Position numbers and translations under genes: made by a program. From IMG/VR virus record IMGVR_UViG_3300043772_001004, positions 1 to 64,000 of that record: DNA of 64,000 bases. One strand, 5' to 3'. Shown here piece after piece: positions 3,157-32,097 of the stretch. How positions within the stretch are numbered: the stretch's first letter is position 1; the number at the start of each line of letters is the position of its first letter. Source of the stretch: a virus. Below the pieces are notes generated by a model, which was not told the DNA's origin, did no database searches, and saw only the letters and a list, made by a program, of their open reading frames with translations.

Positions 3157-3354
3157 ATGAAAAAGAAGAAAATGAAAATTGAATTCAACGGCCAAGAAGT
3201 ATACATTAACTTTGTATCAGAAGACAATGCCTATGTTATTGTAAGCAAAGACAAAGAAGGTACACTTGGCAAGTTTAAACTTAATTCAAATGAAATTAAA
3301 GGAGTTGACTTAAACAAACTTAAAAAGTTTAATAAGAAACCTAAAAAAGTTTAA
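3157..3354 (+). CDS. Small basic hypothetical protein (65 aa)
   Basis: Fills the gap between the terminator and the convergent giant gene; protein-like composition; its stop overlaps the opposing stop in TTAA at 3351-3354. Confidence 0.65.
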   Translation: MKKKKMKIEFNGQEVYINFVSEDNAYVIVSKDKEGTLGKFKLNSNEIKGVDLNKLKKFNKKPKKV

Positions 3355-6300: not shown

Positions 6301-9300
6301 GGCTGACCTAATTCATCCCTATATGTAAAAACTAAATCATTTATCTCTTGATAAGTTCCAGAGATATCAAATGGCAAATTCATTTTAGTCTGTAGCTCTC
6401 CTAATCTTGCAACTAAAGCTTTTCTTTTGTCAGCATATGCAGGGGCATACTTCATAGTTATATTCTGCCTTTGCCACTCCCTAACTTTTTTGTCAAACTC
6501 TACTGTGTCTCTTTGTATACCTTCAATAGCTAAACTATTTATAAACTCATTATAAGCTGATTCTAATGATTTTTCTGATGGAACAAACTCATAGAATTTA
6601 GATTTTGCTCTACTTGCTTTAACTAATACTTTTGCTATTGACAAATCAAAGATGCCTTTTTTAGGATCATCCTGTTTAGCTGTACCATCTTCATAAGTAA
6701 GTCTACTTAATTGTTTGAAGTTTCTAAATGCAGCTTGAATAGCATCATAGTTTTCAAATCTTGATAACTCATCATCATGTTCACTAAGTAAGCTATTATA
6801 TTCATCTAATGCATTTTTTCTTTTTGCATAAGCTTCCATGTTTATTCTCTTACTTGTAGCTGCATCATAACCTTCTACAAGTTCATCATAAACATTATCT
6901 GATTCATAGTATTCAGGAACAAACTCTTGCCACATGTAATCTTTTTTGAACTGTCTAAGTTCTTCTCTGGCTTGAATTATTTTGTCCTGGTCTTTTGAAA
7001 TTCTAGCTTGTGCTAAATTATATTCTAAAATATCTTCTTCATATCTATATCCATTACCAAACTCATTTAAGAAAGTTCTTATCTTTCTTTGAATAGGTTT
7101 ACCAGTTTCTTTATCCCAGTATAGTATGGTATCCTCAAATGTTACCATGTCTTGAATCTGAGTAACATTAAGTTTATTAAAGTTTACTTGAGGTAATAGT
7201 TTCTCTAATGATTTTAAGAAAGAACCTGACTCTTCCATGAAGTCATTAGTAATCTCTGTTCTTTGATTTTGAATAAACAATGCTAAAGAACCTACTATAG
7301 GATCATTACTAGAAGTATAGCTCTCTAAGAATCTATTAAACCAACTTACATCTCTGGCGTGACCAGTTAGTGCACCCTGCAGTTTCTCAGGTGTAGATAC
7401 CATATCTTGATATAGATTCAAAAACCTTGCAAGTACATCCTTTGGAACTCCTCTTTTATATAATTCTTCTAGATCATCAGTAACATCTTCTTGAGAGATT
7501 ACTTTATTGTAGAAGTTGTTAATAGCAGTTTCTCTTTCTGCAAGATTGTTGTAAGCATTTTTAAAAGCTATAGTTAGATTCTTTTTAAATTCTTCTTGAA
7601 CAAACTCATTCATTGGTCCTGTAAGTTCTACATAGAATTGAATGTTGTTCTTTTTATAAATTTGAGAAATAATTACATCAACTTCATCTAGGTTAGCATT
7701 GATTTTATTTAAGACATTATAGAATAGATTGTCTTTATCCATCTTAACCCCAGATTCTCTTAGCACATTGTTAAACTGATCAATAGTTTCTTTCCAAGCA
7801 TATGTGTTTTGCTTATAGAAATTAACAAGAGCAAGGGTATTTCTAGCACTAACGTTTTTATCTTTATAGATTTTACCTAAATCATTAAGCATGTTCTCAG
7901 CTATGATGTCAATTTTATCTATACTATTTACTAAGGCTCTAGCTTGTTTATATAATTCTTTTATTTGTTTATCTTCAGCATCTATTACTAAAGACATTAA
8001 CTCTTCAGAAGTATATCTACTTGTATCTGTAATTGTTTGAAAATCACGGAGTAATGATACTGCTTCTGGTAATAAATTCTTTGAACCACCTTCTGTCTTT
8101 GAACCAAAAATAGTTTCAGAAACCATTTGCTTTATAGCTTTATCAGTTTTAAAGTTCTTAGATCTATTTAATATGGCTTGATTACTAGCATACCATTCAT
8201 TAATAATTTTTTCTAAAGATTCTTTACTTAGTGATTTAGTTAATTCATTAGCTCTTTCAGTAACAAATTTACCGTACTGAAATAAATCATCCTCTGTTAC
8301 ATCATACTCAGACAAATCTATCTCATTCTCTAGTAACATGCTTCCTAGTTCATTCAATGTAGTATCTTCATTTATTGAACTAATTCCTTGTTTATTACCA
8401 AATATTCCTCTGAAGAAGTCTTTGATTGCAGCTAGAATTTTATTTATAACAGACTCAAAACCTTCTGTTTGAATTTTCTGAGTTAGTTTATTTACAGAAG
8501 ACAATTGTAAACCATAAGTAAGTATCTCTGATTTTAGCATGTCCTCATTAGAAACAAGCTCAGGATAGTTTTTTAAAACATTGTCTCTAATTTGTTGACC
8601 CTCTACAGTTTTTATTAATGCATCATATAGATTGTTAAATAACTTTCTATTCTTTGTTCTAATTCCATTAATAACCGGGTGAGCAAACTCATGCAGTACA
8701 GTATTTATACTTACATTATCACCTACTACATAAACAGTACCTGCATAATAAAAAGCTGGTTCACCATTATAAGGTGTTGGACTTACTCTAGTTATCTCAG
8801 CTGCTTTTTCTGGTGTGATATTCTGAAAACCTATATTTAATCCAAGACTTAATTTTTTAGCAAGTTCTTCTGCTACACGTTTAGATCTTGCATCCTGTAG
8901 TGTTTCAATATTAATGTCTACTAATGGAATACCATAAGCCATAAGACCCGCATCTTCTTGAATATTTTCATTTGGAATAAATCTATTATAATCCCATATA
9001 TCTTTTAATCTTCCAAATTCTAATTTAGCATTAAAAGTATTTTGCCAATTTGCAATTTCTAAAACTGTACCTGAGTCTAATGTAACTTTTCTACCGGCTG
9101 TTTTCTCTTCTATATTTTTTTCATAAGTGAAGATATCAATTAATTTAGCTTCAATTTTTCCAGTGTGTGAATCTGTTAATGGTAAATAACTACTTACAAC
9201 ATTTCCATTTGAGTCCACTACATCATAACCAATAATTTTATTTGTAGACCCTGTAACCACACCATTTTTAAATACTTTTTTAGAAGTATCCAATTGTAAG

Positions 9301-11246
9301 TTTTGAATTGTATAACCTTCAGGAGCTATCAACCAGGTATCTGTTTGATACTCTTCATTATATATATTTCTTATATACTTATTTTTTGGATATAGTTTAT
9401 TAAAAATTTCAATGGCTTTACTTCTAGGTATAGGACTTACCCAATCTAAGTCATGCAATTGATTTTCATCAGGTCTATATACAGCACCTTGCATGGATAA
9501 AGTTATACTTCCCGTTAGTATAAAATGTTCAGCCATTTTATCAACAATAGTTTTTGCAAATGGATCAGATTCCAATGCTTTTTCTATAGATATTTTAGAT
9601 ACTTTTTTACCAACAGATCCTGGTTTATACACAGATTGTGTGATCAATGATTGATTTTGAATCAAAATATTATCTGCAATATATCCTATGTTTTTATTTA
9701 TTCTAGAGATTTTTAAGTTATTTAAAAAATCAAAAAACTGTTTTATTAGATTTTTTATTGACTCAGTAAGTGATTTTGGTAATTGTGTATTTGTTTTTTT
9801 ATGAAGTTCTTGTGATATTAAATCTCCCACAGCTTCTAAAAGTTCATCCTTTGATAAATTCTTAAACATAGAAGACTTTCTCATACTAGAAGTAATTTCT
9901 GTTATGAGTGGGTTATGCTGCATCATAAATGCAATGACTTTACCTGCTTGTTGCGGGTAATCCTGTTGATTATTTTTATTTGTATAAATTATTTTATTAA
10001 GTATATCTACATGTGCTAAGCTATCTATACCCAATCTATCCTGAATATTTTCTAATACTTCTGTCTTTATACCAAACTTAGAAAGATATGAAGCTAATGT
10101 TTTATTTAATTCATTATTTAACTCATTATAGATCTTAGGATTATTAAGTAAATCTGTTTTATCTATATTTATTTTATTTATAGCAGAGTTTTTAATAATT
10201 TCATTTACAACTGAATCTATATCAGCCTCAGTTACTTTTGCACTTTTAATTTTTTTAACTAATCTATAGGCATTATAATCATATATACCTATTTGATTAA
10301 GTATAGGAAAGATTTTATCATAATTTTTTTGTTCATATAATTTTTTCAATTCAAATATTAAACTCCAATAATTAAAAAAGAGGTCATAGTCTACAATTTG
10401 TTCAGGAGTTACTTGATCAGCTTTTGTTTTAAATATTTTTTCTACTAATGCCTCATTGCTGAAGTATAAGTTCTTAATCATATCTTCCCCTCTAAAATTA
10501 TATGCTTTATCTACATTGAGTTTATAAAGTTTTTTCTTTTCAAGCATTCTACCTATGTCTTCTGGCACAGAAGCTACAAAATCTATATTAGCAAATAAAA
10601 TATCTAGCTCATTATATAACTCCTTTATGTTTGGTGAAGACATTAATCTTCCTTTAAAGACATTATTTTTAACATCCCATTCTCCAAATATGTAAGTATT
10701 CTTAGATTTAAAAACTTGTAGATTATCAAAGACTTGTTGAAACTTTTCTCTATCAACAGCTTTGCCTTCTCTCTTTCTATCCATGAGATTAACATAGTTT
10801 TCATAGATTGTATCAACCTCATCTTTAGTTAAGTTTAAGTATTGACCATTAGAAACAACCTGAAAACCAGTATTTTTTAATCTATCAATATTTATTCTCA
10901 TCATCATTGGTTGAGCTTCAGGATCTCTACCCTTATCAAACTCAACCTGCAATTTTGCAAATAGATCTTTATTAGGTACTGCCCAATATGTTCTATATTT
11001 TGCATCCCTTCTGTAAGTTGATCTTGACCAGTCTTCATTTTCAACAACATTGATGCTAAATAAAAGCTCACCATCTGGTACAACTAAATTAGGATACTTA
11101 GCCTTAGCAAACGCAGTATATTTCTCATTTAGTTTATCAAACTCTGCTCTATCTAAAATTCTATTTAAGCCATCAAAAGAAAAATCATCAATTATGTTTT
11201 TACTTTTTAGCTGATTAATTGTATTTATTTGTACTTGACAAGACAT
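3351..11246 (-). CDS. Giant virion/ejection polyvalent protein (2631 aa): degenerate zincin, nucleotidyltransferase, zincin, LysM, C-terminal hydrophobic helices
   Basis: LTGS...HDLD...IDIF...KLEFGRLKDIWD (NTase); VLHEFAH; HTYTKGETLQKIADKYNITVEELKKRN...GQEIVI (LysM); lies next to the virion RNAP as in crAss-like phages. Confidence 0.8.
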   Translation of the reverse strand: MSCQVQINTINQLKSKNIIDDFSFDGLNRILDRAEFDKLNEKYTAFAKAKYPNLVVPDGELLFSINVVENEDWSRSTYRRDAKYRTYWAVPNKDLFAKLQVEFDKGRDPEAQPMMMRINIDRLKNTGFQVVSNGQYLNLTKDEVDTIYENYVNLMDRKREGKAVDREKFQQVFDNLQVFKSKNTYIFGEWDVKNNVFKGRLMSSPNIKELYNELDILFANIDFVASVPEDIGRMLEKKKLYKLNVDKAYNFRGEDMIKNLYFSNEALVEKIFKTKADQVTPEQIVDYDLFFNYWSLIFELKKLYEQKNYDKIFPILNQIGIYDYNAYRLVKKIKSAKVTEADIDSVVNEIIKNSAINKINIDKTDLLNNPKIYNELNNELNKTLASYLSKFGIKTEVLENIQDRLGIDSLAHVDILNKIIYTNKNNQQDYPQQAGKVIAFMMQHNPLITEITSSMRKSSMFKNLSKDELLEAVGDLISQELHKKTNTQLPKSLTESIKNLIKQFFDFLNNLKISRINKNIGYIADNILIQNQSLITQSVYKPGSVGKKVSKISIEKALESDPFAKTIVDKMAEHFILTGSITLSMQGAVYRPDENQLHDLDWVSPIPRSKAIEIFNKLYPKNKYIRNIYNEEYQTDTWLIAPEGYTIQNLQLDTSKKVFKNGVVTGSTNKIIGYDVVDSNGNVVSSYLPLTDSHTGKIEAKLIDIFTYEKNIEEKTAGRKVTLDSGTVLEIANWQNTFNAKLEFGRLKDIWDYNRFIPNENIQEDAGLMAYGIPLVDINIETLQDARSKRVAEELAKKLSLGLNIGFQNITPEKAAEITRVSPTPYNGEPAFYYAGTVYVVGDNVSINTVLHEFAHPVINGIRTKNRKLFNNLYDALIKTVEGQQIRDNVLKNYPELVSNEDMLKSEILTYGLQLSSVNKLTQKIQTEGFESVINKILAAIKDFFRGIFGNKQGISSINEDTTLNELGSMLLENEIDLSEYDVTEDDLFQYGKFVTERANELTKSLSKESLEKIINEWYASNQAILNRSKNFKTDKAIKQMVSETIFGSKTEGGSKNLLPEAVSLLRDFQTITDTSRYTSEELMSLVIDAEDKQIKELYKQARALVNSIDKIDIIAENMLNDLGKIYKDKNVSARNTLALVNFYKQNTYAWKETIDQFNNVLRESGVKMDKDNLFYNVLNKINANLDEVDVIISQIYKKNNIQFYVELTGPMNEFVQEEFKKNLTIAFKNAYNNLAERETAINNFYNKVISQEDVTDDLEELYKRGVPKDVLARFLNLYQDMVSTPEKLQGALTGHARDVSWFNRFLESYTSSNDPIVGSLALFIQNQRTEITNDFMEESGSFLKSLEKLLPQVNFNKLNVTQIQDMVTFEDTILYWDKETGKPIQRKIRTFLNEFGNGYRYEEDILEYNLAQARISKDQDKIIQAREELRQFKKDYMWQEFVPEYYESDNVYDELVEGYDAATSKRINMEAYAKRKNALDEYNSLLSEHDDELSRFENYDAIQAAFRNFKQLSRLTYEDGTAKQDDPKKGIFDLSIAKVLVKASRAKSKFYEFVPSEKSLESAYNEFINSLAIEGIQRDTVEFDKKVREWQRQNITMKYAPAYADKRKALVARLGELQTKMNLPFDISGTYQEINDLVFTYRDELGQPITPELGEAKIKKIKDLEQSIINFRESLARNTGLTQEELSYLNSLTAMAKKGVNLTDDQKKAMVRLLEKQTKTGLNISEAAEFQSILSELGDLSEKIPTDYYMDALNFNLSRLNKPEVTSDKVNDYINSDEFQDLLDEDEILSNWFEDNHVSKKRRDKDKVEIIFELSYANRITVPSDKKYILSTKVLDNETGETITFNGVPNARHSVYRVKNEYRTIPIGESWDNYIGTIIDNKGNYLPRLFNPGNKNSAKDNKYMNQRFFDLKRSNNAEFKLLEEMKKFHLGVQKGQSNYSKLYLDMPRHALKAGDIFQAMQRGKIGERFKTFTDWKNQLVGKSITDFERGYNYDAKNNLVNTDLKGNEITYVPVEGIYNLELENTDADIITGLFKYGMSIKTQGKLLESLPIVESIVDTLEDPANQPKNMEAYSKGIFNVRNLYQNPTKAGAENNRLGQVRSLIEREYRGQQTASFEESNPRLAKWLDIIQGLSTRASLAVNIPSDLKNQFSGYMQSMIESIGGEFITSKDYAMAIPWSSQAMITWASKDAFAVGPGSLSGQMIQRFDPTFTSEDKFGNSVSKSIVKDLANGSWMYAHRKFGEMDVAVKLFGAFLHGQKVNQVVNGKQVFIRYVDAFELDKEGLMKLKTGVDVAWDTKSVFHTYTKGETLQKIADKYNITVEELKKRNNVESEIQFEDGQEIVIAKSEKFKAFKNKLQGTSRRLFGAYDRFGQPEGNKFIAYRMFFFMRKWFTPMLTNRWGINTKTASFSQGGERYDWALGKYTKGYYISAFQTLVRMLKSKGAEMAYMTDQEKSDLKRTMAEGMLIIFTALIASMLLGFDPDDDDKWKKIRERSGAINEDNFNTYGFLVNHFLLLVLGVQAETSAFVPLPKIYGVNLGADDYVKMLTSTSTSWYNTVVLYTQIMGDVLNFITFDEAERYEKDQGPYWWKQKGALKFWKRLFGVVGFTGGTGDVETTLKNQQASAGRLGG

Positions 11247-11248
11247 TA

Positions 11249-14200
11249 TTATTCACATTTAAATGGATCTTCTTCTAAACCTAGTTGATCAAGTATTTCT
11301 TGATCTGTTAAACCTTCTGCAATCTCTGTTCTTTTTTGCATTTCATTATACATTGCTGAGCCTGGATTTATGTATCCAAATTCATCAAACAATCTTGTAC
11401 TTAAATATACAAATAATTCTTGAGGCATCAATGCAGAATCCCCAAATCCTGTGTTTGGAAATGCTATAGGTGTGAATTTACTTTCACCATCATTAATAGA
11501 TTTAATGTGTGCAATTTCTTCTTCCCATAATCTTAAAACATCTTTGTAAGCTTCTTTTGGTAAATTTTGAAAATTATCCCCAAGTTTAGTTAAAGATGTT
11601 GTTATGTTCATTGTCATATTACCAGCATACTTTTCTAGTTCTTGTTGTCCACCAAAATTCTTTTTCTTCTTATTGTAAGTTTCATTAACATTGTTTTTGA
11701 TAAATACAACATTGTCATTTTGATTAACTAGTTTCTCATAGAATTCTTTATTACCTAATTCATCCTGATATTGGAAAACATTAGTTCTATTAGTTTCTAT
11801 TAGATCATATGGTGACTTTTCTTCATCTTCCATTTGGTCTGTAACATCTATACCTAGATTTGTATCAAAATCCATAAGATAGTCTTTGTATCTACCCTTA
11901 TTAATATTTCTACGAGAATTTACTTGTGTAAACTTTTCAAAGAATTTATCAAGTATAACATCTCCACTTGCATTTAATAAATCTATAAATTGATCTGATT
12001 CATTTTTCATTACATCTAAAAAGTTTGTAAAATCTACAACATTGGTAAAGCTCAATTTAGTTTTATTAAGACCAGTTTGTAAGAAGGCAAAGTTAGACAT
12101 TAATGCAAACATATCACTGATTCTATCATTCTCATCTTTATCAACTACTTTTAAAACAGATCTGTCAGAAAGATTCTTAAGATTACTTGTGTAAACATTA
12201 GCTTTAGATGTATTCATATCTTTATCAGCAAGATAGATATTAAATATAGATTTGGTTTTATCTGAGTCTTGTTTAAGTACATTCAATATCTCATAGCTAT
12301 TAAGCAATGAATCTTTATGTTCAATTAAGAATTTAACATATCTTGAAGCTAGAGCATTGTCTTTATCAATAAACAAATGATAGAAGTTATATACATTGTC
12401 CAATGCTTTATTGGTAATGTATCTCTCATAGATAAATCTACCTAATATTCCTCCATCCACATCTGGATTAGCTTCATAAAGATCTAGTCCTTCTTTTCTA
12501 AACCAAGATTTATTAACCATCTCATTGATAGGGTATTCTGATCTTAAGAACTCTCTTTCAGCAACAAATCTCATGTATAGCTCAAAGTTTAGTTTACCAT
12601 TCTCCATGAAGGTTCTTGGATCTAAAGAGTACATGTTTCTATTTTCATAGCTGTTTACTTCTTCTGATCCTCTTGCCCATGCCTCTGAATCAAATTCTTC
12701 TTTGAGTGAAGCCTCATCTATATACAAAAACTTAGTACCATCTTTGTTAGCTTTAACAAATGCCCCTCTACTTTTTATATCAGAAGCTAGTGCAGTAGGT
12801 ATTTGCTTTTTGATAGTATAAGACATGTAACTGTCTGTCAGTTTATATTTTCTAATTGCATTCTGAAAAATCATGTTAATTAGGTCATTTCTAAACATAG
12901 TCATGAATAGATCTATCTTTCCTTCACCTAATAGTTTTCTTGATACTTTTCTAAATACTTGTGAATTCTGAATAATATAGTCACTAATTACCTTGTTATA
13001 TCTAAATTTAAACAAAGGTCTAATTACAGCTAGAGATAAAGGACCATTAAAGAAAGAGCTAATAACAGAGTCATTAAGCATTCCTTTTAACAAATCTTTG
13101 CTAATTTTAGTTTCATTAGCTAATTCTTCTATAGCAGATTCTGATAATTCTATTTCTGACCCAGTTGTCTTTGTAGATGTATCAGGATTAGAAGATAGCT
13201 TTAATGATGTAAGCCCGGTGATTTGTTCTTCTATCTCTATATAATGTAAGAACATTGCTTTTGCAAGATCAGCTTCATTAGCAGAAAGTTTACCTTCATT
13301 CTTAGAGAAATTTTCAATAAGAGTTAGCATCTCCCGTTCAGTGAAAGATTTATCTTTTCTACCTTCTAAGTATTTCTCAGCTAATTCAACACCTTTTTCA
13401 TATATGTTTTTTGATTTTGCAGAACTTGATAGTTCTCTTGTATTAAAATACTTTTCAATAACTCTACTTGCAGCTTGTTTAGCTACTATAGCTGGATTAT
13501 CTGGTTTATTATTTAATACTTCAGCATATGTAGAATTAGCAAGAGTTTTTTGTTTTATGTATTCTCTAACTAGAGGATTAGATACAAAATATATTGCTTC
13601 TTTGACAGGTACACCTGTTTTTAATAAATACATTAATGTTGGTGCAGTCTCATAATTACCTTGAATAAAGAAAATCCAAGGATCTTTTTCAACATCCACC
13701 CAACCATTTATTAATTGCGCTAAAATATCTGCTACCTTATATTCATTTTCCACATCAAACATGTTAGACATTGAGATAAAGTCCTCACCATCTACATTTA
13801 ATTTATGATGTCTTAGCCACAAGTGTGCATCTCTCTCCTCTATATTTTTACCAACAATGTGCATGTATTTATTAGGCATGTATGCACCCAAGCTATTAAA
13901 GATTACATTAAAAGTATTTTCAATAGCACCCAATCCTAATGTTCTCTTACCTACAATGTTAGACTCATGTTTGTATACATTATACAATGATTCTAAAACT
14001 CTAGTAGGGCTAATAATCTTTTTAGTTGCATTATCTGGATCTATATTTGGATCCGTCATTTTATTAGCATATGGATTATATTTCATTACATACTGTGATA
14101 GTTCAGCAGCAATAGGCTCTAAAATATAATTACTATTAGGAGTGATTAAAGACACATAGTTATCTGGTAATTCCAGAATTTCTTTCATGTTATATATAAG

Positions 14201-17200
14201 ATCATTTTCTACACCTGCTTTTTGCTCTTCAAATAACATTTCTATTTCACCGGTAGATAAACCTGCAGCTTTTAATCTATTGTATTCAGCTTTGAATTCA
14301 TTATAGCTATTAAACTGTGCTTTTTTTACTGTACCATCAGAATTTAAATTTGTCATGAAGGTTGTAAGTTTATCAATATCAAAGTCAGCTCCTGATTTAG
14401 CTACAATCTCAGCTGGTGGAATGATAATATTACCTGCTTGTGGAGGAAGGAAATGATATACTTCAGCAAATTCTGCAGAGTTTAGACCCTGTACTGGAAT
14501 CCTAACTCCTACTAATGTTATTGCTCTTCTGTTAGCTTCATTATTTGCATTCAACCAAGCTTCATCTTTAATTTTTTCATTCAATCTCATGAGTGAATTG
14601 TCCATGTCTAGAACACCATCTGATAAATATACTCCAATGGTTTCCCCATTTCCATAATCTAAACTAAAAAGCTTATAATAGTCTCCCTGTATAGCTATCA
14701 TTACTTTCATAGCTGCAGTATAACCATTTGCTTTTTTATGAAATGTAGGTAAGAAGTTAGTTCCTACATATTTTTTAATTACAGCATCTCTCTCTGCTTT
14801 AGTTTTAGTAGATAAAGTTTTTGATATATCAGCATATTGATTGAAAAAGCCAGAAGACATTTGTACCAATGCTTCTCCTTTTACTTTTTGCTTAATAACT
14901 TTTTTGTTAATAATTGATAAAAGTAATTTTTCAATTTTAGCAGATTCTGGATGAAAAGATAAATCATTTACAAGAGAGTTATCACTTTCATATACATCTA
15001 TAAAATCTATAAGGTCATCACTTAATATATCATCTTTTTCTAGATTAGCTCTAATTACACTTGTAAGTTTTTCCATACTAGCATTGGCAGTTGGAAGGTA
15101 TTCTCCATCTACCTCTTCATATCCAAGTTGATTTAATAGTTGTAACTTATGAAGATTAGTTAAAAACTCTACATTTTTTATGTAGTCATTAACTCTTCTT
15201 ATAACTTCTTTATCTTTAGATATGATTTCACCATTCTCATATAATCCTTCAAGGATCATCTTTCTAATCTGTGTAGAAAATATAGTTACTTCTTTAAATG
15301 AGGAGTTAATCTCTGTCTGATTTTTAAGGAATTCTGCAAAGATGGTGTTCTCTGTAAATTTAACATTTTGATTAAAAGATCCATCTTCATTAAAGACTTC
15401 ATCACCAGTTCCAATGTGTCCAATCTTAGATCCTGTTTCAAATGTAACATAATCTACTTGTTGCTCCATCATTTTCATATGTAGGTCATATAATTCAGAA
15501 CCTTCTTTTGCAACTCCTGGAACTAATGGTGCAAGTGAGAACTTGTGGAATGATGTTACAGGTAAACCGGTTGATTGTATATTACCAAAGTACTGTAATT
15601 TGTAAGGAGGGAAAAACTGTATGGCATCTTCTAGAGTAATGTTTTCTCCTCTTGATACTTTCTTATAAAGATCTTCTTGCTCATCTGACCATTTACCTTC
15701 TAACCATTTAAGATTTCTATAAGCTTCAAAAGTTATATAACCTTGACCATCAGCTACTTTCATTTGTTTGTATTCTTTTAATACTTTTTCTGCAAGAGCT
15801 TTAGCTTTAACTGCGTCACCATATCTTTCAGTATATGTTTTAGTTAATTCTTTTAAATACTCTGGATAGTATTTAGAATCTTTTTTAAGTTCTTTCATGA
15901 TGGCAGTTTTCAATGTACCATCATATTGTCTATACTTTATTTTATCTTTTGTTCTTGTATTGTTTAAGTAATCAATATATCTTTTTGGAAGCATATTGTT
16001 TACAAACTGCATAGCTAAAGCATCAGCTCTAAAACCTAGACCACCAGAACCTAAACCAGCATTTCTTTTATGAAACTCTTCTTTCTTATGATTGTATTGT
16101 GCTAAATCACCATATGCAAGAATAACAGTTTCATATTTATGAATAAAAGAATTATATGTATATGCCTTAGTTAAAATTTCATTTACATCTTCTCCTTTCT
16201 TAGCAAATTCTGCTGCTAAAGATGCATCTACATATTCATTTTCCTCAAGCCTTTCATAGTTTTCTTGAGTCATTAGATTAAAATATTTAATTATATCTCT
16301 CTCTACTTCATCTCTTAGTGTTACATTATCATTTAATATTTCCATCATGTCAAAGTCTGCCTGTTTATTATCTACAGCATCTTGAATAATGTCATATAGT
16401 TTTTCTTGAGTGTCTTTAGTAAGGATATCATCAAATAAAGTAAATGCCTCTCCAGCAAATACCTTTCTACCTAATTTATCAGTAACTTCATTATTGTAGC
16501 CAGTATATCTTTTAAATTTCTCTATGTCATTTTTAAATCTAAAAATTCTAAGAGACTCTCCAGATAAGTAACCCATCATTATTTTAGCTCCTTCCAATTC
16601 TCCAACACCCCCTTGAGCAAATGCATTGATGTCAATGTATAAGTTTTTACTTTCTTTTGCTTTTCCAGGATATGTAATAATTGAAGTTTTTTTATCAACA
16701 GTAAGACCCATTGCCATATTCTTAGAAGCATGTCTCATAAACTCCTCTACACCATTCAACAACATTGTATGGAACTCTTGTAAGAACTTACCTACTCCAT
16801 CCATAGAAGCTGTGTTACTTCCTGTGGTATCATCTTGTTCTTTACTGATAAACTGTGTACCTGTAATATTCTGAAGAAGTAATTTTGCATTCTTTCTCTT
16901 TTTGCCATATTGCTCTGGCTTTTTTGGATTTCTCTTCATATAGAATACACTATTAAGCAATTGAGAAAAACCTACTTGCGTATTATTTTCTTTAGCTAAC
17001 CAGTGCATTTGTTTAAACAAAGGAGAAGTAGTTAACTCTTGGTAAGTTTCAGCTTTATTAATAGCTGTAATTACACGAGTTATTGTGTTATCCACAAAGT
17101 GTTCCCATACTCTATTTCTTTCTGCATTAAGTACACTAAAATTAGAAAAGCCATCTGAAAATTCATTTTGAATTTCTGCCAATATTCTTATTCTATTTTG

Positions 17201-20200
17201 TACATCATAACCCTGTTCTTTGTCCTTACGCAGTTTTATATTTATACCTTCTGCTAAGTACTTTAAAGGATTTCTTCTAAATTCATCTTTAAGAAATTCA
17301 TCATTAGATTGATTAACAACCTTCAATGCATCTAGCATTATATCTAATCCAAACTCAGTAGAAAAGTTTAAAGACTTATTATAGACAATATTATATATTG
17401 CAGGACTAGATAAGTCCAGTTCTATACCTAATGCTTTTAAAAATTCAACAGAATCTCTAGCAGTCATTACTGTTCTTTTACTAAATCTTTCTACAATTTT
17501 ATTTAACTTTAGTAAATTATTATTTGAACCAACTTCTTTTTCAACGTATTTATTTATACTTGGATCAGCCATTATAAAGTTTGTTTCCCATTCACCGGTA
17601 ACTGCATAAACATCCATACTAGCTTTAGAAAGTTTTGTTTTAAACTTCTTATCACCTTCTTTGTCTATGTTTAACTGAACGTATCTAATTCTTGGTTTTT
17701 TAAGATCTTGCCAAAAATTAGTTTCTACTCTATACTCAATTGGACTTTTATAACCTCCACCTTCAACATCAACATGTACTGTTTGAGGTAAGAGCTGCAT
17801 TAATTGCTGGAACTCTGGAAAGTTTTCTACATTATCAGCCAATCTTTGGTACATCTCATATATATCATATGAACCTTCTAAGATCTTAGCAAGTCTCTTC
17901 CACATGATATCTACACTTTCTAACTTAGGAATACCAAAGAAATCTTTTTCATACTGAATATTACCTTCCTCATCTTTAACAACTTCACCCTTAACATTTT
18001 TTTGAACTCTAAAAATTCCTGATAAAAGCATTAAGGTTTCTTCACTAGCCAGTTCTTTAGATGAGAAAGTATTACCACTTGCATCTTTAAATTGTTTTGA
18101 AGCCTCAATTGATGTTGTGTCTTCTATTTCATTATAAGATTCTTTAAGGGCTGTAAACCTAGATTTCTTTAAGTGATATGCAACAACACCTGTTTGTTGT
18201 TTACCCTCAATAGATAGTTTTATATCACCATAGTTAGTTATGATTTTAGATACAAGATCTATAATATTTTTTAGTTTAGCTTCTTGTGCCGCTAAATCAA
18301 TATTTACAGTCTCAGATTCTAAGTTCTTTAAAGCTACTTGCTTATATTCATCAACATAATATTCTTGTAACTCTAAAAACTTATCATATATATTTTCATA
18401 TAAAGCAGCTCTATTTTTTAAATTCTTAGTAGTTTTTAAAAATCCAGTTGTGGTATTAGCTTGAACATTAAAGTTTTGAAATTCAGCAGCAGCTAAAGCA
18501 TCTATTGTATTTTTAATTGTTAGACTTTCATCTGCAGTAAATGTTACTACATTTTTGTTAGCCTTAATTGCTTGGATATTTCTATCACCTCTGTTTAGTT
18601 TAGTAAATCTAACATTCTGAGTTGATGCATTTAAACTTTGGAATAAACCTTTTTTAATTGCTTGTTCTGGTTTGTTAGTTCTAAGAACATCAAACATCTC
18701 TCTTACTCTAGGAATGTCTCTTGGGCGGGTCATGTCTTTTCTAGTTATCCCACCATAAGCCCATCTTAAGAAAGAAGCTATGCGTTCAAATAGTTTAGCA
18801 AGAAATGTTGGAAGAGATTCTTTAAACTTCTCAGACTTCATATATGATCTAAAGTCTTCTGCTATGTCTTCTTCTATATCAAATGCATCAGCATCTTTCC
18901 ACTTATTTACTTTTTGAGCTTCAGCATACAATGCTTCTTTTTCTTCAAGAGTTAAGAACAACTGTGAAAAAGCATGCCATGCCTCATGGTAAATGTCCAC
19001 GTTAGTACCACCTTTCCAAAGAGTAATACTTGCATTTTCAAAAGTAGCAACAGCATCTGAGTTAGCTAATTCAGTAAGCCTCATTAAAAGCTTTATTTGA
19101 GTTTCATTATCAATTTTTACTTGTGATAAAAATGAATTATTCCACCAGTCAAGAGCTTTGTCTTTTGTTTTCTTAGTAGTAAAGAATTTATCTAAAAAAG
19201 TATTTAACTCTTGTTTTCTTGATAGATAAGAACTTTTCCCGGGTTTTCTTAAGATATTAGATATAGTATTTTGAGCTGCAATAATATCTTGTTTTGTTGC
19301 TTTTTGCGGTTTAGTCTCTGGGACAACTTCTGTTATAACAATGTCAGCATCCTCAACTTTATTTCTTCTGTTGATTAAATCTGCAAGAACATCTACATGA
19401 GATCTATATTTTTCACCAGATTTCTTATAGTAAATAAATGTTACATCATCTAGCCAACCTTTTTGAATTGAGTCTAAGATCCATTTTCTTCTTTTTTGCT
19501 CTACATTTTTATGCTTCTTACCTGTTAACCAGTCTTCATAATTCTGTACTGCAGTCTCTATATCATCAACAACCTTAACACCCTTATTTAAATTATCTTT
19601 TTGTGTAGACCATGGGTTACCAAAATGTTCTTGAAAAGGAACCATTGGTGTTAAACCTCTTGCAGGTCTCATACCCCATGTACCTTTTCCATCATTAAAG
19701 GCATCTTTGGCTACTTGATAATTATTAAAATTTTTAACTTGTGCCTTTGGTTCTGACGGAGCACTCTTTTTAGTTTTTTTATTATCTGGATTAACCTCTT
19801 TTGGAGGACCAACTTCATATAACTTTTGACCAGGTACTAATATATCAGGAATATTAAATGTCAAATATGCATTTAACCCAGAGAAGTATTTAGATGTTTC
19901 TTCTGGATACTCAATAAGAACACTGTCTTTAATAAAGTCTAAGTAATCTTCTTGTACTTCTTCTAGTTTACCCTTTTCATTTATAATATAATCGGTAAAT
20001 TCTTTACCCATTAGCTTATCAACTAGATTTAAAGATGCACTATATACTTTCTTTGGACCTTTTTGTTTTGCATAAATTTCCCAGTTTGTCCGTGCTTCTA
20101 ATAGATGTTTATATATCAACTCTCTTGTTTCAGGTGTATATAAAACATCTTGTTCTATTGGGTCTTCTCCTTTAATTTTTATTTCTAAAATAGCTTGACC

Positions 20201-21691
20201 ATCTTCATCAGTAGTTTCTTTAACAGTTATACCATCTGGATTTGTATCTTCACCTTTAGTTGGTTTGTTATTAATAAAGTTTTCAAAAAATACTCTTCTT
20301 TGAAATGGTGTTAACTCACGACCATTTAATTTAGCTGTAGTAGTTAGTATATCTGCAATATGTCCAGCTAATTGATCAGATATATTATCTCTTTGTAAAA
20401 CCAATGTTTGATCTATTGTTACACCAGGTCTATTACTTGAAAGTTTAATAGAATATCTACCACTCTGCAATAATTGCAACTGTATGTCATCTATATTTAA
20501 ATCTGTTTTACTAATTGGTATTGGCTTAACATCTTCATTTACTAGTCCAAATGACCCACCATTTATTGTAAGATACACTGGCTCATCTGATGACTCAACA
20601 CTTTCTCTTAACTTAAGTAGCTTATTGAATAGAGTAGTTTGTTTTAGTTTTATTTCTAAAGTTTCTACTGCAATAAGTTCTGGAGTTATTTTTTTAATAA
20701 TTCCTGCTTCTTTTCTTTGTTTAAGTGCTGTTTCAGCTGCTTCTTGTGCAGGAACCAAAGAAGTTTTTTTACCGTAGGCTCCTTGTAAATATAATTTACC
20801 ATCCTCTACTACAGGTTTTCTAAGCCATTGATATACTCTTCTTCCACCACCTTGTCTATTGATTGTACCATCTTCATTAAAGTATACCTCATTACCTTCT
20901 GTATCTGAAATAACAGCAACTACACCAGCAACATTTGGATTTTTACTTTGATACTCCATGTCTGATTGTGTAAACATCTGTGGATCAGCATTTTTAACCT
21001 GCATCACTTTAAGTACTAATGAAACAGGATTGTCTTCTCCATATAGTATCTCATCACTATTCTCTGGCGTTTGTCTTGCCATGTATACTATATCTCTAAT
21101 TACTTCACCAAACATTTTCTTTTCTGGATCCTTTTCATTTTTTGGTTTATTTGAATTAGGATCCACTCTATATGCACCTTGTCCGGTAGTTCCATTTGGA
21201 TAAACAACTTTTGCACTGTACTCTGCAGCACTCCATCCAGAATGGTTGTAAGGTTTTGTGTCATCTATTTCTTCTGATGATTCACTTTCTAAAGCTTTAT
21301 TAACTTCTTTTGTTGCTGCTTTTTTTGTTTTAATAGTTGGTTTAACAAGAACTTCAACCTTTTTAATGTCAGCAAATTCATTAGCAAGCGTTGGAATATC
21401 AATGAATAACTGTGTATTTGTTTTAAGAATATAGTCTCTAGCTTTTGGTCTTGCAGCAACTAACGCAAAGATTTGAGGAATAGCTTGAGCAAAATACAGT
21501 GCTTTCTCTTTTTTATCTTCTTCTGACTCAAATCCTTCATTAGGCATATTATTTAGTTCTTTATAGAACTGTTTCATAATTGCTTTTATGTCAATAGGAT
21601 TTTTATTTTTACCAGATATTCTATCTGCTATTTCACCATATACATAAGCATATACAAATTCTACTGCAGGTCCATTTAATTCACAAGCCAT
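11249..21691 (-). CDS. Virion-packaged DNA-dependent RNA polymerase of crAss-like phages (3480 aa) with accessory domains
   Basis: Catalytic GADFDIDKL (nt ~14368-14392) preceded by RIPVQGLNS; ADGQGY motif; IYHEAWH zincin motif; size and position match crAss-like vRNAP. Confidence 0.9.
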   Translation of the reverse strand: MACELNGPAVEFVYAYVYGEIADRISGKNKNPIDIKAIMKQFYKELNNMPNEGFESEEDKKEKALYFAQAIPQIFALVAARPKARDYILKTNTQLFIDIPTLANEFADIKKVEVLVKPTIKTKKAATKEVNKALESESSEEIDDTKPYNHSGWSAAEYSAKVVYPNGTTGQGAYRVDPNSNKPKNEKDPEKKMFGEVIRDIVYMARQTPENSDEILYGEDNPVSLVLKVMQVKNADPQMFTQSDMEYQSKNPNVAGVVAVISDTEGNEVYFNEDGTINRQGGGRRVYQWLRKPVVEDGKLYLQGAYGKKTSLVPAQEAAETALKQRKEAGIIKKITPELIAVETLEIKLKQTTLFNKLLKLRESVESSDEPVYLTINGGSFGLVNEDVKPIPISKTDLNIDDIQLQLLQSGRYSIKLSSNRPGVTIDQTLVLQRDNISDQLAGHIADILTTTAKLNGRELTPFQRRVFFENFINNKPTKGEDTNPDGITVKETTDEDGQAILEIKIKGEDPIEQDVLYTPETRELIYKHLLEARTNWEIYAKQKGPKKVYSASLNLVDKLMGKEFTDYIINEKGKLEEVQEDYLDFIKDSVLIEYPEETSKYFSGLNAYLTFNIPDILVPGQKLYEVGPPKEVNPDNKKTKKSAPSEPKAQVKNFNNYQVAKDAFNDGKGTWGMRPARGLTPMVPFQEHFGNPWSTQKDNLNKGVKVVDDIETAVQNYEDWLTGKKHKNVEQKRRKWILDSIQKGWLDDVTFIYYKKSGEKYRSHVDVLADLINRRNKVEDADIVITEVVPETKPQKATKQDIIAAQNTISNILRKPGKSSYLSRKQELNTFLDKFFTTKKTKDKALDWWNNSFLSQVKIDNETQIKLLMRLTELANSDAVATFENASITLWKGGTNVDIYHEAWHAFSQLFLTLEEKEALYAEAQKVNKWKDADAFDIEEDIAEDFRSYMKSEKFKESLPTFLAKLFERIASFLRWAYGGITRKDMTRPRDIPRVREMFDVLRTNKPEQAIKKGLFQSLNASTQNVRFTKLNRGDRNIQAIKANKNVVTFTADESLTIKNTIDALAAAEFQNFNVQANTTTGFLKTTKNLKNRAALYENIYDKFLELQEYYVDEYKQVALKNLESETVNIDLAAQEAKLKNIIDLVSKIITNYGDIKLSIEGKQQTGVVAYHLKKSRFTALKESYNEIEDTTSIEASKQFKDASGNTFSSKELASEETLMLLSGIFRVQKNVKGEVVKDEEGNIQYEKDFFGIPKLESVDIMWKRLAKILEGSYDIYEMYQRLADNVENFPEFQQLMQLLPQTVHVDVEGGGYKSPIEYRVETNFWQDLKKPRIRYVQLNIDKEGDKKFKTKLSKASMDVYAVTGEWETNFIMADPSINKYVEKEVGSNNNLLKLNKIVERFSKRTVMTARDSVEFLKALGIELDLSSPAIYNIVYNKSLNFSTEFGLDIMLDALKVVNQSNDEFLKDEFRRNPLKYLAEGINIKLRKDKEQGYDVQNRIRILAEIQNEFSDGFSNFSVLNAERNRVWEHFVDNTITRVITAINKAETYQELTTSPLFKQMHWLAKENNTQVGFSQLLNSVFYMKRNPKKPEQYGKKRKNAKLLLQNITGTQFISKEQDDTTGSNTASMDGVGKFLQEFHTMLLNGVEEFMRHASKNMAMGLTVDKKTSIITYPGKAKESKNLYIDINAFAQGGVGELEGAKIMMGYLSGESLRIFRFKNDIEKFKRYTGYNNEVTDKLGRKVFAGEAFTLFDDILTKDTQEKLYDIIQDAVDNKQADFDMMEILNDNVTLRDEVERDIIKYFNLMTQENYERLEENEYVDASLAAEFAKKGEDVNEILTKAYTYNSFIHKYETVILAYGDLAQYNHKKEEFHKRNAGLGSGGLGFRADALAMQFVNNMLPKRYIDYLNNTRTKDKIKYRQYDGTLKTAIMKELKKDSKYYPEYLKELTKTYTERYGDAVKAKALAEKVLKEYKQMKVADGQGYITFEAYRNLKWLEGKWSDEQEDLYKKVSRGENITLEDAIQFFPPYKLQYFGNIQSTGLPVTSFHKFSLAPLVPGVAKEGSELYDLHMKMMEQQVDYVTFETGSKIGHIGTGDEVFNEDGSFNQNVKFTENTIFAEFLKNQTEINSSFKEVTIFSTQIRKMILEGLYENGEIISKDKEVIRRVNDYIKNVEFLTNLHKLQLLNQLGYEEVDGEYLPTANASMEKLTSVIRANLEKDDILSDDLIDFIDVYESDNSLVNDLSFHPESAKIEKLLLSIINKKVIKQKVKGEALVQMSSGFFNQYADISKTLSTKTKAERDAVIKKYVGTNFLPTFHKKANGYTAAMKVMIAIQGDYYKLFSLDYGNGETIGVYLSDGVLDMDNSLMRLNEKIKDEAWLNANNEANRRAITLVGVRIPVQGLNSAEFAEVYHFLPPQAGNIIIPPAEIVAKSGADFDIDKLTTFMTNLNSDGTVKKAQFNSYNEFKAEYNRLKAAGLSTGEIEMLFEEQKAGVENDLIYNMKEILELPDNYVSLITPNSNYILEPIAAELSQYVMKYNPYANKMTDPNIDPDNATKKIISPTRVLESLYNVYKHESNIVGKRTLGLGAIENTFNVIFNSLGAYMPNKYMHIVGKNIEERDAHLWLRHHKLNVDGEDFISMSNMFDVENEYKVADILAQLINGWVDVEKDPWIFFIQGNYETAPTLMYLLKTGVPVKEAIYFVSNPLVREYIKQKTLANSTYAEVLNNKPDNPAIVAKQAASRVIEKYFNTRELSSSAKSKNIYEKGVELAEKYLEGRKDKSFTEREMLTLIENFSKNEGKLSANEADLAKAMFLHYIEIEEQITGLTSLKLSSNPDTSTKTTGSEIELSESAIEELANETKISKDLLKGMLNDSVISSFFNGPLSLAVIRPLFKFRYNKVISDYIIQNSQVFRKVSRKLLGEGKIDLFMTMFRNDLINMIFQNAIRKYKLTDSYMSYTIKKQIPTALASDIKSRGAFVKANKDGTKFLYIDEASLKEEFDSEAWARGSEEVNSYENRNMYSLDPRTFMENGKLNFELYMRFVAEREFLRSEYPINEMVNKSWFRKEGLDLYEANPDVDGGILGRFIYERYITNKALDNVYNFYHLFIDKDNALASRYVKFLIEHKDSLLNSYEILNVLKQDSDKTKSIFNIYLADKDMNTSKANVYTSNLKNLSDRSVLKVVDKDENDRISDMFALMSNFAFLQTGLNKTKLSFTNVVDFTNFLDVMKNESDQFIDLLNASGDVILDKFFEKFTQVNSRRNINKGRYKDYLMDFDTNLGIDVTDQMEDEEKSPYDLIETNRTNVFQYQDELGNKEFYEKLVNQNDNVVFIKNNVNETYNKKKKNFGGQQELEKYAGNMTMNITTSLTKLGDNFQNLPKEAYKDVLRLWEEEIAHIKSINDGESKFTPIAFPNTGFGDSALMPQELFVYLSTRLFDEFGYINPGSAMYNEMQKRTEIAEGLTDQEILDQLGLEEDPFKCE

Positions 21692-21692
21692 C

Positions 21693-24600
21693 TTAACACT
21701 TATTAAAAATATTTTTTACATTTTCCATTCTTTCTTCAGGTGTCAAGTTTTCACTTTCAACCTCAATTTTTTCTAAAGCATCAGGATCTTTAGATAAATT
21801 AGTTATGTTAGCTTCTGTACCTTTCACATTCTCCTTTGTTTGTGGAGTAACTGTCATTTCTTCAACAGGTTTAGTTTCATCACTTGGTCTCATAAAATTT
21901 TCTTTTACTTCTTGTTCAGTAAAGTTATAACTTTTCTTCCTTATAGGACTAAATAGTTGTACGGTTCTTGCTTCTAAATCTACACTTTGAACAATAAATG
22001 TTTGGTTTATTTTTTTAAATGCTCCAACTGGTTCTGAATTAAGTAGTATTTCACCTTCTGCTAGATTTTCTAATACTGCATTATTCTCAACATTCTGCAA
22101 TCTTTCATTGTAAACTTCATCTACAATTTCAGAGTATGGACCTTCTTTTGTTTGTCCAAAAACAAACTTTAGTACAGCATTAGTAAAAGTCATTTCTAAA
22201 TCATCTGTTGACTCATCAAAGAAATCTTCTACTTCAGCTCTAATCTCATCTCTTTCACTATCTTCAGTAGGTTGAGTAGATGTAGAACCTAAGCTTATGC
22301 CTTGGATCCTTTGTCTTGCGTCTTGGATGCTCTTCTCAAGATCTTCTCTTGATATTGTTTGTCTAGAAACTCCCTCTGTTGTTGCTCCGGCAGGCTTCTG
22401 AACAGAAGGTACATTTGTGCCCTGCTGTACTTTTGTTCTGGCTTCAAACTCTTTTCTTGAGGTTTTTGTGATTTTTCCATTTTTGAAAAATTTAATTGCT
22501 GTTAAATTATTAAGTATTTCATTTACTGCTGCTATTGTATTATCTACAGGAACAGTAGATCTTTCTTCGTTGGCTAATCTATTTTGATATTCTTCTAATT
22601 TAATAATTAATTCAACACCCCACTCTTCAATTTCTTTTTGTTTGGTAGGAGTGAGATTATCAATTTTTCCATCAAATAAATCTTCAATATCTTTTGTAGT
22701 GCCATGCTCAGATAGAATTTTATCTATCTCTTTTGTAACTGACTCTGACTCAGACAGTTGTGCAATTAAATTAACTTGGTCTTCTCTATCTGTAGGTAGA
22801 CTAGCAGGAACTTGTTTTTGAAATCTGTTAGGTAGTCTGTTTAATGCAAAGATTAAATCATCAGCATTCCCACCTCTTCTTGTACGTTTTTGATTTTTAT
22901 TAACTAGATCAGTCTTTAAACTGTTTAACCTATTTAATTCAAATGTTTTTTTACGGATCTCACGCTCAATGTTTTTATTAGCACCTTCTTTCTTTTGTTT
23001 TTGTAAATCAGATATCTCTTTATTGATTTTATTAATCTTCTCTTGTGTTTCATCTATCTCCTTATCATTTGTATAATAAGATAATGAAACTATAGCACCT
23101 GCACTATCTCTATTTATAGTATACTTGATTCCATTAATCTCTGCTGTTCTCTCATTTTTATCTAAGAATCTAGCATTAATGGTGGTTGAGTTAATTTGGG
23201 TAACTTGACCTAATGTTTCTACCTGAGCAATAGGAGATAGTCCAACAGAAACAATATTTACATTACCATCCTTAATATTTTTACCTGAAACATTTATATC
23301 AAGTAGTGATAGTACACCATCTTCTTCTATTTCTACAGAGAAGCCACCATCTAAATTAGTTACAAGTGTACCAATCTTTCCTTGATACATTACCTTTTGA
23401 TTTAAAAACTCATTAAGGGTTTGTTTTTTAGGATCACTTACTTGAATTGCATCCTCTGGTACTTGTTCTTCTTCAGATTCAGCTTCTGGTAAAGCTTCAA
23501 TAGTTTCTGGACCTGTTCTTTGAAAACCAAATTTCTCCATGGTAGCATCATCAAGTGGTTCTAAAATAATAAACATACCATTTTCACTAAGCTTATTATT
23601 TTTAGAAAGATCAGCTGTTGGACGCTTAAGTTTTTTAATATAACCATCCATGGTTACTTCCATCTCAATTGGAAATAAAAGAATTGATGAATCTAGACCA
23701 CTCATGTTGTATATACTATTGCGGTATACACTTAGCTGAGCTCTAAAGTAAGTCTTTTTATTTCCTTTATTTTTAACCTTGTTACCTTCTTTATCAGTTA
23801 GTTCCTTCCCATCTTTTTTTAATGCATATGGTGCACCTAAATTTCTCCAGGTTTTTTCCTGTGCTGCTTTAAGATCCACAATAGCAAGATTACCTTCTGC
23901 ATCTATTAAAAGAAGATCTAGTTCTCCAGTAACACCTCTACCATCTCTTGCGTTTCTATCAAAAACTTTTACATTACCAGAAAATAATTGGAATCCTCCA
24001 TCTATCATGTTTCTTCTAAACCTAGTGGCTTGACCTGTAACAGGATTAAATAGAAAATCATAAGCTTCTTTAGACATTATATCAGAGATCTTAGTGTTTA
24101 CACCTCTTATACTGATTGTTGAATCATATGGTATTTGCATAAAGCCACCTGCAGGATTCAGTGTTAGAAACTCTCTAACTAATGCATCAATGTTAGTACC
24201 GGCAAAACTAGTTTCTTCAAATGCATATTTACTAATTTGTCTTTCTAAGTTTTCTATACTTTGATCAGTCATTAGGCTTTCCTTAATACCTGCAATTTTC
24301 TTATCAGATTTAAACTGAGGATAGCTTGTTCTAATATTAGTTAAGAATGCATCTATTCTTTCTTCAAGTGAACCTATTGGATTATCAAGTACTACTTCTC
24401 TAAATAAGTTTTGAATACTGTTATCCTCAAGCTTATTAAATATGAATGGTGGTTTTTCTTCAATTTCTTGTTCAATTTGTGAAGCAACTTCTGTAGCTCT
24501 TTCAGGTCTAGGATCTGTAGGTTTTGCATCTTTAAATCTTCTAGATTCAAACCCTTCCTCATCCACAACAACTTCTAGTTCATTCTGTCTATTGAATATT

Positions 24601-31900: not shown

Positions 31901-32097
31901 TCATCTTTCTTTTTAATATTTTGATCATGCGTAAGGTCTGCACCATATAGTTGACCATATAGATTATTTAATGCATTCCAGTTAGTATCATACTGGGTCT
32001 GTTTTGTTTGTAACAGATTTGCATAGAAATTTAAATCAGGCTGAAAAGGCTGATAATCTGGTATGTAATCTGTGACTCCTTGTAAGTACGTTGCCAT
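28939..32097 (-). CDS. Putative internal virion/cargo protein (1052 aa)
   Basis: Long ORF with helical composition, N-terminal YQPFQPDLNFY; cargo-region position between muzzle and RNAP; no Cys seen. Confidence 0.65.
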   Translation of the reverse strand: MATYLQGVTDYIPDYQPFQPDLNFYANLLQTKQTQYDTNWNALNNLYGQLYGADLTHDQNIKKKDELLKQIDFNLKRVSGLDLSLEQNVNQAMQVFRPFYEDKYLIKDMAYTKNWKNTYSNAQALLNSPDPKQAAKYWDEGVRGLEYRRQMFKDATLDETLSMADAQYTPKVDVITEYMDFAKKYDIGMVTQTPDGMYMVRKKNGEQLMPGLQQIFWAQYANRPDMQKFYKEKAFVERMDYANQNAEKFGGNKLEAEKEYLKGKYDWLKNMTAQQDAKAKDDLNTSQNLQANLQRQVATGNVNPMQKSYSERLNEMIGVSDAVEKHTSELNSQLNPAVGSAVVPAQSDDIMNNIELARLKVDAAMASYSAGTDINSAAGSYAYSNYEIEYKPDAVAIAKFRESAADARLVKSHRYKLEEQEEAERLKRQTKYQEAMVAKGRAYYKADGTFEMNPQNSGFDLIFHGKKDESGQTSEGIQFDKLNQQVLDEVINEKAGQGINSMMTYINDLVNGDNGSQLTSAQLGQVLNHFRSNDPTIDKIIAQGKKYPNQNKAKQIWNEIYSEYSKGDKDKFVKNVTKFGDIYHLNQYMKQWSARHNGNQIADQMVNDKSIYDLETLGRSHEAMEITRANNAKKIKQAFTENLKFSADKLKEDGYNISNEQIDRAVNRVMNEYVASGYDWDAVRSNSEELNRAINGDLGVSFVKNTQSNRNRSWWEYIPGIYGAEAIYDAATGNRVNVEASWINDILDKSYVELASNNDPEKGLHSFVQTISRGGDKVAIASQNQTVKVDSDFGGDFGHQAALQAIRDALNLPQGADFNFAFSNDLPAEGEGDGLNDDLARSFLSTLYSKMGKADMPDFFLSTSRVARENNKLGSTTFNIPRTVVEEVMKSLEGDYEAADLARAQDRIIQKGLTVVAPHQYWTHKLWNASTPTATEIVLSNQDIKYTHPQNSGKYTLSKINGVPGVDYGAKIVTRIMDRDGNAIEYEQFMDMNKRSGQKIDDIEGDAWNLLAKQNEYNQQMFKYFYQTNNTKAIENAIKNFGINPNDPLWKY

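Follow-up and report, generated by a model that had tools for sequence, protein, structure and literature searches.

The window analysed here is a stretch of 64,000 nucleotides (nt), positions 1 to 64,000 of the IMG/VR record IMGVR_UViG_3300043772_001004, and belongs to the 102,735-bp genome of a crAss-like phage. It carries a leftward operon of giant genes. The subject of this report is three of the encoded proteins, called protein 1, the virion RNA polymerase (RNAP) and protein 3, and the few cysteines (Cys) that they contain. The genes and features needed below are as follows, with sizes in amino acids (aa).

28939 to 32097, minus strand: upstream cargo protein, 1052 aa, 0 Cys
21693 to 28934, minus strand: protein 1, 2413 aa, counterpart of phi14:2 gp67 and crAss001 gp47; its sole Cys is the last residue
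21696 to 21698, minus strand: codon (TGT) of Cys2413, the last residue of protein 1, from the codon check
11249 to 21691, minus strand: RNAP, 3480 aa, with two Cys, Cys3 and Cys3479
21683 to 21685, minus strand: codon of RNAP Cys3 (M-A-C), from the codon check
18974 to 18988, minus strand: HEAWH zincin motif, RNAP residues 902-906, in the N-terminal third; the marker for the displacement of break 1
14372 to 14386, minus strand: DFDID catalytic motif of RNAP, residues 2436-2440, from motif and homology
11255 to 11257, minus strand: codon of RNAP Cys3479 (..DPFKCE), from the codon check
3351 to 11246, minus strand: protein 3, 2631 aa, counterpart of phi14:2 gp65 and crAss001 gp49; its sole Cys is Cys3
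11238 to 11240, minus strand: codon of protein 3 Cys3 (M-S-C), from the codon check

The cargo block and its cysteines

Together, protein 1, RNAP and protein 3 contain 4 Cys among 8,524 aa, all of them at the termini that face one another in the gene order; the outer ends, which are the N-end of protein 1 and the C-end of protein 3, have none. This is the arrangement that the original prediction, made from the letters of the sequence, had claimed, and a count by script with a check of each codon agrees with it, finding no additional internal Cys in the three proteins. The remaining proteome of the same genome has a Cys content of 1.31%, and the number expected in 8,524 aa is ~112 against the 4 observed (Poisson P ~2e-42). 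Given the counts, the probability that all four would lie <=3 residues from facing termini is P ~2e-12. A chance origin of the pattern is rejected. The Cys frequency of the cargo is orders of magnitude under that of the phage proteome, which is a suppression of the type found in Schitoviridae. At the DNA level, junction 1 (protein 1/RNAP) reads AAG TGT TAA G ATG GCT TGT and junction 2 (RNAP/protein 3) reads AAA TGT GAA TAA TA ATG TCT TGT. As a separate observation on Cys content, the operon that holds the Cys-free cargo genes also encodes a 735-aa protein (58962-61169, minus strand) with 58 Cys (7.9%), and the neighbours of that protein have 3% Cys.

The catalytic region of RNAP matches gp66 of Cellulophaga phage phi14:2, IAS virus, Kehishuvirus and many uncultured Crassvirales, and a hidden Markov model (HMM) of the RNAP family aligns with phi14:2 gp66 at E = 1.9e-17. 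The DFDxD motif of two-barrel RNAPs is present as DFDID, invariant across both RNAP alignments, and this motif with the gp66 homology sustains the label of RNA polymerase under which the 3480-aa protein was first described. The protein 3 family HMM matches phi14:2 gp65 from residue 1 (E = 6e-27), and as in a gp65-type partner, protein 3 carries a zincin motif, HEFAH (852-856), and a LysM domain. With DFDID and the family HMM matches to gp66 and gp65 in hand, we identify the block as, in all likelihood, the set of cargo proteins, RNA polymerase included, that a crAss-like phage packs into its particle. The HEAWH motif of RNAP is invariant, and a homologous domain is found near the C-terminus of protein 1 in Kehishuvirus (as YHEAFH) and within the fused giants of cr108_1 and cr273_1. 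HEAWH in RNAP and HEFAH in protein 3 indicate that the block probably has two zincin-type domains, the second one in protein 3.

Other searches of these proteins were less productive. PHROGs and Pfam gave no match for protein 1 or RNAP, and tblastn of the junction-proximal 330 aa of protein 1 and RNAP against the phage collection gave none either; only the RNAP catalytic region reached named crassviruses. Whole-protein phmmer against the proteins of named crassviruses also gave no match, and family HMMs were required.

Conservation of the terminal cysteines and dependence on gene breaks

Conservation was examined in 360 homologues, 120 per protein, with identities of 39-99% (43-98% for RNAP). 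Almost all of the RNAP homologues have exactly two Cys, Cys3 and one at -1 to -3, while protein 1 has a single C-terminal Cys in 114/120 and protein 3 a single Cys, at position 3, in 105/120; the exceptions for proteins 1 and 3 look like truncated or mis-started gene calls. In alignments, C3 and C3479 of RNAP are invariant (30 sequences, mean column identity 24%), C3 of protein 3 is one of just 7 invariant columns (30 sequences), and the terminal Cys of protein 1 is the sole invariant column of its last 220 residues (40 sequences).

A scan of IMG/VR extended the comparison to 80 loci, 64 of them non-redundant, with RNAPs 28-64% identical to the one described here. A junction was scored as having a Cys pair if there was a Cys in the last 10 residues upstream and another in the first 8 residues downstream. 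Conservation of the terminal Cys in relatives, which the original prediction had named as its comparative check, is borne out among the 64 non-redundant loci, where the pair is present in 52/53 first junctions and 54/54 second junctions and internal Cys come to 22 in 459,268 aa (0.005%). The extreme case for length is locus L074, in which an RNAP of 6,381 aa has only Cys5 and a last-residue Cys. The outer N-end of protein 1 has a Cys in 0/50 loci and the outer C-end of protein 3 in 1/52. The same lone-Cys signature (one Cys within a few residues of the upstream C-end, one at about position 3-6 downstream, and otherwise Cys-free sequence) is found in the cultured marine phage phi14:2, in which gp67 ends ..TIC, gp66 starts MAC and ends ..ECK, and gp65 starts MSC. 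The Cys pattern is conserved well beyond chance.

The 1052-aa upstream protein is outside the Cys-linked chain, and its counterparts at 45 loci have 2 Cys in 38,158 aa, with a Cys at neither end. It ends DPLWKY (28939-28959, minus strand), which is like the DPFKC(E) tail of RNAP minus the Cys, and the two may be a common C-terminal docking tag. The C-end of protein 3, at the other side of the block, is AGRLGG (3351-3371, minus strand); most protein 3 homologues have a short basic Gly-rich C-terminal tail (S-R/K-x-G-G, ..GGRIR), a tag that recalls xxGG motifs elsewhere in this genome.

The pairs are independent of gene adjacency. Kehishuvirus tikkala and IAS virus, which are of the crAss001 type, have the protein 1 gene on the other strand and apart from the start of RNAP, and the protein still ends ..IRCS and ..YLRC, respectively; the terminal Cys of RNAP and protein 3 are retained as well. 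At locus L052, RNAP and protein 3 stand on either side of a 1.8-kb insert that has a GIY-YIG endonuclease gene, and they retain their Cys pair. This insert contains a GIY-YIG/NUMOD3 homing endonuclease gene (21952-22542, plus strand) plus a 296-aa open reading frame.

The pairs do depend on where the block is broken. The HExxH domain that is found ~900 aa inside the RNAP protein here belongs to protein 1 in tikkala, ~150 aa short of its C-terminus, and this displacement would put break 1 at positions ~1,050 residues apart in this family and in Kehishuvirus. In both lineages the break-1 Cys are at the actual termini only, so that the Cys pairs track breaks rather than homologous positions. Fusions give the complementary result. 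In nine Suoliviridae, protein 1 and RNAP are fused into giants of 4,272-5,794 aa, none of which has an N-terminal Cys; the giant has a Cys at -2 to -4 in 7/9 and the next gene begins with Cys3-6 in 9/9. In two Intestiviridae (cr8_1 and cr271_1), it is RNAP and protein 3 that are fused; their one remaining pair is at the break that follows protein 1, and Cys is lacking from the outer C-end. Extra breaks are found too. At five loci (L047, L064, L066, L075 and L083) a go-between protein of 242-307 aa is encoded between RNAP and the next protein, with Cys3 and the last residue as its only two Cys. At the related loci L053 and L054, RNAP itself carries the go-between domain at its C-terminus (blastp E of 4e-18 to 4e-22), with no Cys at the join. 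Over the Crassvirales sequences compared, the rule of a Cys pair at every break of the block and none where the parts are fused holds. One fused locus has a peculiarity of its own: in cr108_1 (L002 20135-20426) the frame of fused protein 1 and RNAP ends a short way past the catalytic motif and is taken up again 290 nt downstream, from a start codon other than ATG; an intron, an intein-less split and an assembly error are conceivable causes.

These comparisons bear on whether the Cys codons might matter as a signal in DNA or RNA at the junction, for a ribosome hop like that of T4 gene 60 or for re-initiation, giving a true polyprotein. Junction 1 looks the part, since identical codons stand around the stop in TGT TAA G ATG GCT TGT, and the upstream Cys codon comes immediately before the stop in 30/52 first junctions. 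We nevertheless find such a signal extremely improbable: the C-terminal Cys of protein 1 is still there in Kehishuvirus and IAS virus, where its gene is on the opposite strand, the pair persists across the insert of L052, the spacing between the Cys codons ranges over 8-57 nt with 0-9 residues after the upstream Cys, TGT and TGC interchange, and the purge of the other Cys is left unaccounted for. Programmed translational bypass of the T4 gene 60 type was rejected as a candidate in its own right, the single mRNA and short distance that it requires being absent. Native-chemical-ligation or intein-like chemistry was rejected as well: the Cys never stands at position 1, intein blocks are absent, and the frequent bulkiness of residue 2 means that Met is probably kept.

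The upstream and downstream Cys of a junction occur together, with both present in 106/107 junctions, neither in 1, and only one in 0. That the facing Cys are gained and lost together, with one pair per break, argues that they are partners. It might be supposed that each terminal Cys binds something other than the terminus that it faces, such as another particle protein (portal, capsid interior or cargo), its own copy or a modifying group, and there is room for this in that the crassvirus pairing is read from sequence and the RNAP-block proteins of crAss001 are unresolved in the maps. Independent partners are disfavoured because they would not require the strict coupling of facing Cys, and the joint loss on fusion, the joint gain on fission and the outer ends essentially devoid of Cys point the same way. 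We regard a non-facing partner as unlikely.

A proposed thread of disulfide-bridged pieces

The original prediction had joined the three proteins in gene order into one string for ejection. The partnership of the facing termini in that proposal now has strong comparative support, because the pairs follow breaks, vanish in fusions and persist without adjacency; the chemistry of the bond (disulfide or metal), the time of its formation, the ordered ejection and the reductive release in the cytoplasm are what we infer for crassviruses. The explanation that we favour, and consider probable, is that the block is a split polyprotein in which each split is bridged by its facing terminal Cys pair, most likely through an intermolecular disulfide, to make a single thread. 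The bridge would run from the upstream piece, at a Cys that is a few residues short of its C-terminus, to a Cys at position 3-6 of the downstream piece, and it would be made post-translationally, with the disulfide forming inside the particle. The product would be one head-to-tail thread of ~8,500 residues with nearly no side branch, packed at a fixed 1:1:1 proportion, threaded partly unfolded through the narrow tail, and taken apart when the host cytoplasm reduces the bonds. Other Cys would have been purged so that no wrong or intramolecular disulfide forms or blocks unfolding. The rationale for a purge that had been offered at the outset, transit of the periplasm, was already proposed for the ejection proteins of Schitoviridae (PMC11445570).

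A precedent for such a bond is found in Anabaena phage A-4L (A4), for which a disulfide between gp27 Cys1715 and gp26 Cys5 was seen by cryo-electron microscopy (PNAS 2025, PMC12002296). In the A4 pre-ejectosome, the disulfide is beside the C-terminal helix of gp27, which is docked in gp26 (PMC12002296). The A4 genome record has gp27 (1717 aa) and gp26 (1114 aa) as consecutive genes with one Cys each, Cys1715 and Cys5. The likeness to the crAss block is in having consecutive large ejection proteins with an upstream Cys near the C-end and a downstream Cys near the N-end, and also in the C-terminal helix beside the Cys. An AlphaFold2 (AF2) model of the last 220 aa of protein 1, with a predicted local distance difference test (pLDDT) score of 84, has helices at 171-188, 191-202 and 206-219 and then Cys220, so that the last helix runs directly into the Cys. 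On the other side of the junction, the AF2 model of RNAP residues 1-260 has Cys3 immediately before an all-alpha domain with pLDDT ~95. The complex prediction for the second junction, RNAP 3180-3480 with protein 3 1-300, had a score of 0.02 and returned no answer. The systems differ in that A4, a T7-like cyanophage, lacks a virion RNAP and has a single link, and the A4 paper (PMC12002296) gives no general rule and no multi-protein chain. A further feature of the protein 1 C-terminal model (22355-21696, minus strand) is a small beta-barrel at residues ~103-146, with weak Foldseek similarity (E ~1e-2) to SH3/Tudor-like domains and to the TraI translocation-signal domain of conjugative relaxases.

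The chemistry of the bridge could also be that of a bound metal ion (Zn, Fe or Cu) joining the termini, for example in a single four-Cys knot. Exactly four Cys in the three proteins of this genome would be compatible with a knot of that kind, and the reducing cytoplasm in which the particle is assembled would be no obstacle to a metal site. However, genomes with one break hold two terminal Cys and genomes with three breaks hold six, so the unit is a pair and not a four-Cys site. At the terminal positions only the Cys is conserved, with no conserved His, Asp or Glu beside it, so a disulfide fits better than a metal site, and the A4 structure displays a disulfide (PMC12002296). A metal bridge is quite improbable in our estimation.

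Several points weigh against the disulfide thread. For crassviruses, the bond is a prediction from sequence. The A4 precedent is an analogy and not a homology, because the crAss proteins showed no likeness to gp26 or gp27 in sequence or fold: the crAss family HMMs gave no match to A4 gp26-gp29 (E > 0.01), and Foldseek with both terminal-domain models gave no match in the Protein Data Bank (PDB) at E <= 0.001. The particle is assembled in a reducing cytoplasm and many such phages live in the anoxic gut, and the time and place of oxidation are hard to explain for that reason. The Cys purge is not absolute, because some gut lineages, among Steigviridae, Suoliviridae and Intestiviridae, carry 2-15 internal Cys in their block proteins. 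Among the fused giants, the nearest Cys is at -11 in cr10_1 and at -50 from the annotated end in cr273_1.

The oxidation problem in an anoxic habitat would be sidestepped if the link formed only after ejection, with thiols free in the virion and the host periplasmic thiol oxidases joining the pieces as they build an entry channel; a tie between passage through the periplasm and Cys suppression in ejected proteins has been made (PMC11445570). Such late linkage has little probability in our view, since the A4 bond is already in the virion (PMC12002296) and RNAP must enter the cytoplasm, which would reduce the bond again. Disulfides are present in the crAss001 particle, in the tail (PMC10172136). 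As to redox genes, a thioredoxin gene is near the cargo block in cr108_1 (L002 31378-31647, minus strand) and cr8_1 (L091 28030-28299, minus strand); this thioredoxin may have a bearing on how far the terminal Cys are oxidised, or its role may be confined to nucleotide reduction.

Relation to known ejection systems and significance

Among the nearest known systems are that of phi14:2, for which the structure of gp66 has been determined (Drobysheva et al. 2021), and gp47-gp50-gp49 of crAss001 (Bayfield et al. 2023, PMC10172136). In both, proteomics has established the block members as virion components (for crAss001, PMC10172136), and fused polyprotein forms of the crassvirus block have been noted in the literature. 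The cargo must cross tail constrictions of <50 Å partly unfolded (PMC10172136). The proteins described here are homologous to those of phi14:2 and crAss001 and have the same terminal Cys pattern, but they are much larger, and their packing in the virion is predicted. In the texts searched, neither the bioRxiv preprint of the gp66 paper nor the crAss001 atlas makes any mention of terminal Cys or of an inter-protein link, and within the literature searched, the terminal Cys of the crassvirus block are nowhere mentioned.

Schitoviridae such as N4 and DEV are alike in having a giant virion RNAP with companions nearly devoid of Cys: the N4 gp50 virion RNAP (vRNAP) and DEV gp71-gp73 have almost no Cys, and the N4 and DEV virion RNAPs have none (PMC11445570). 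The N4 vRNAP is a single chain of the beads-on-a-string type (PMC13434306). The difference is that the N-terminal domain (NTD), RNAP and C-terminal domain (CTD) of Schitoviridae are one polypeptide without Cys, whereas the crAss block is split and has a conserved Cys pair per split. The RNAP fold family also differs between the two. A likeness of mechanism may be drawn to the AB toxins. In diphtheria toxin and the clostridial neurotoxins, one redox-labile interchain disulfide ties the cargo chain during passage through a channel and is cut in the reducing cytosol. These are unrelated proteins, and the comparison would extend to mechanism only.

A wider proposal can be made, tentatively and as something possible rather than probable, that terminal disulfide clasps rebuild a split podophage cargo into one translocation thread and also sense its arrival, as a principle common to unrelated phages. 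As the arrival sensor, the clasp would be cut by host thioredoxin or glutathione in the cytoplasm, and this would free and activate the RNA polymerase. The motive for splitting may be that podophage cargo is oversized for one gene, or there may be an advantage in being split. If true, the clasp principle would span Crassvirales and cyanophage A4, and the sequence of the genes would by itself give the order of ejection.

In the human gut, no other phages are as abundant as crassviruses. Their cargo of ~1 MDa includes the polymerase that starts the infection, and the block proteins are invisible in the crAss001 maps. For this cargo, the sequence rule predicts covalent end-to-end links, along with the order and stoichiometry of the parts. 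It would also explain the free evolutionary interchange of fused and split forms of the block, and it would carry over to an entire order of viruses what has been seen in the structure of one cyanophage.

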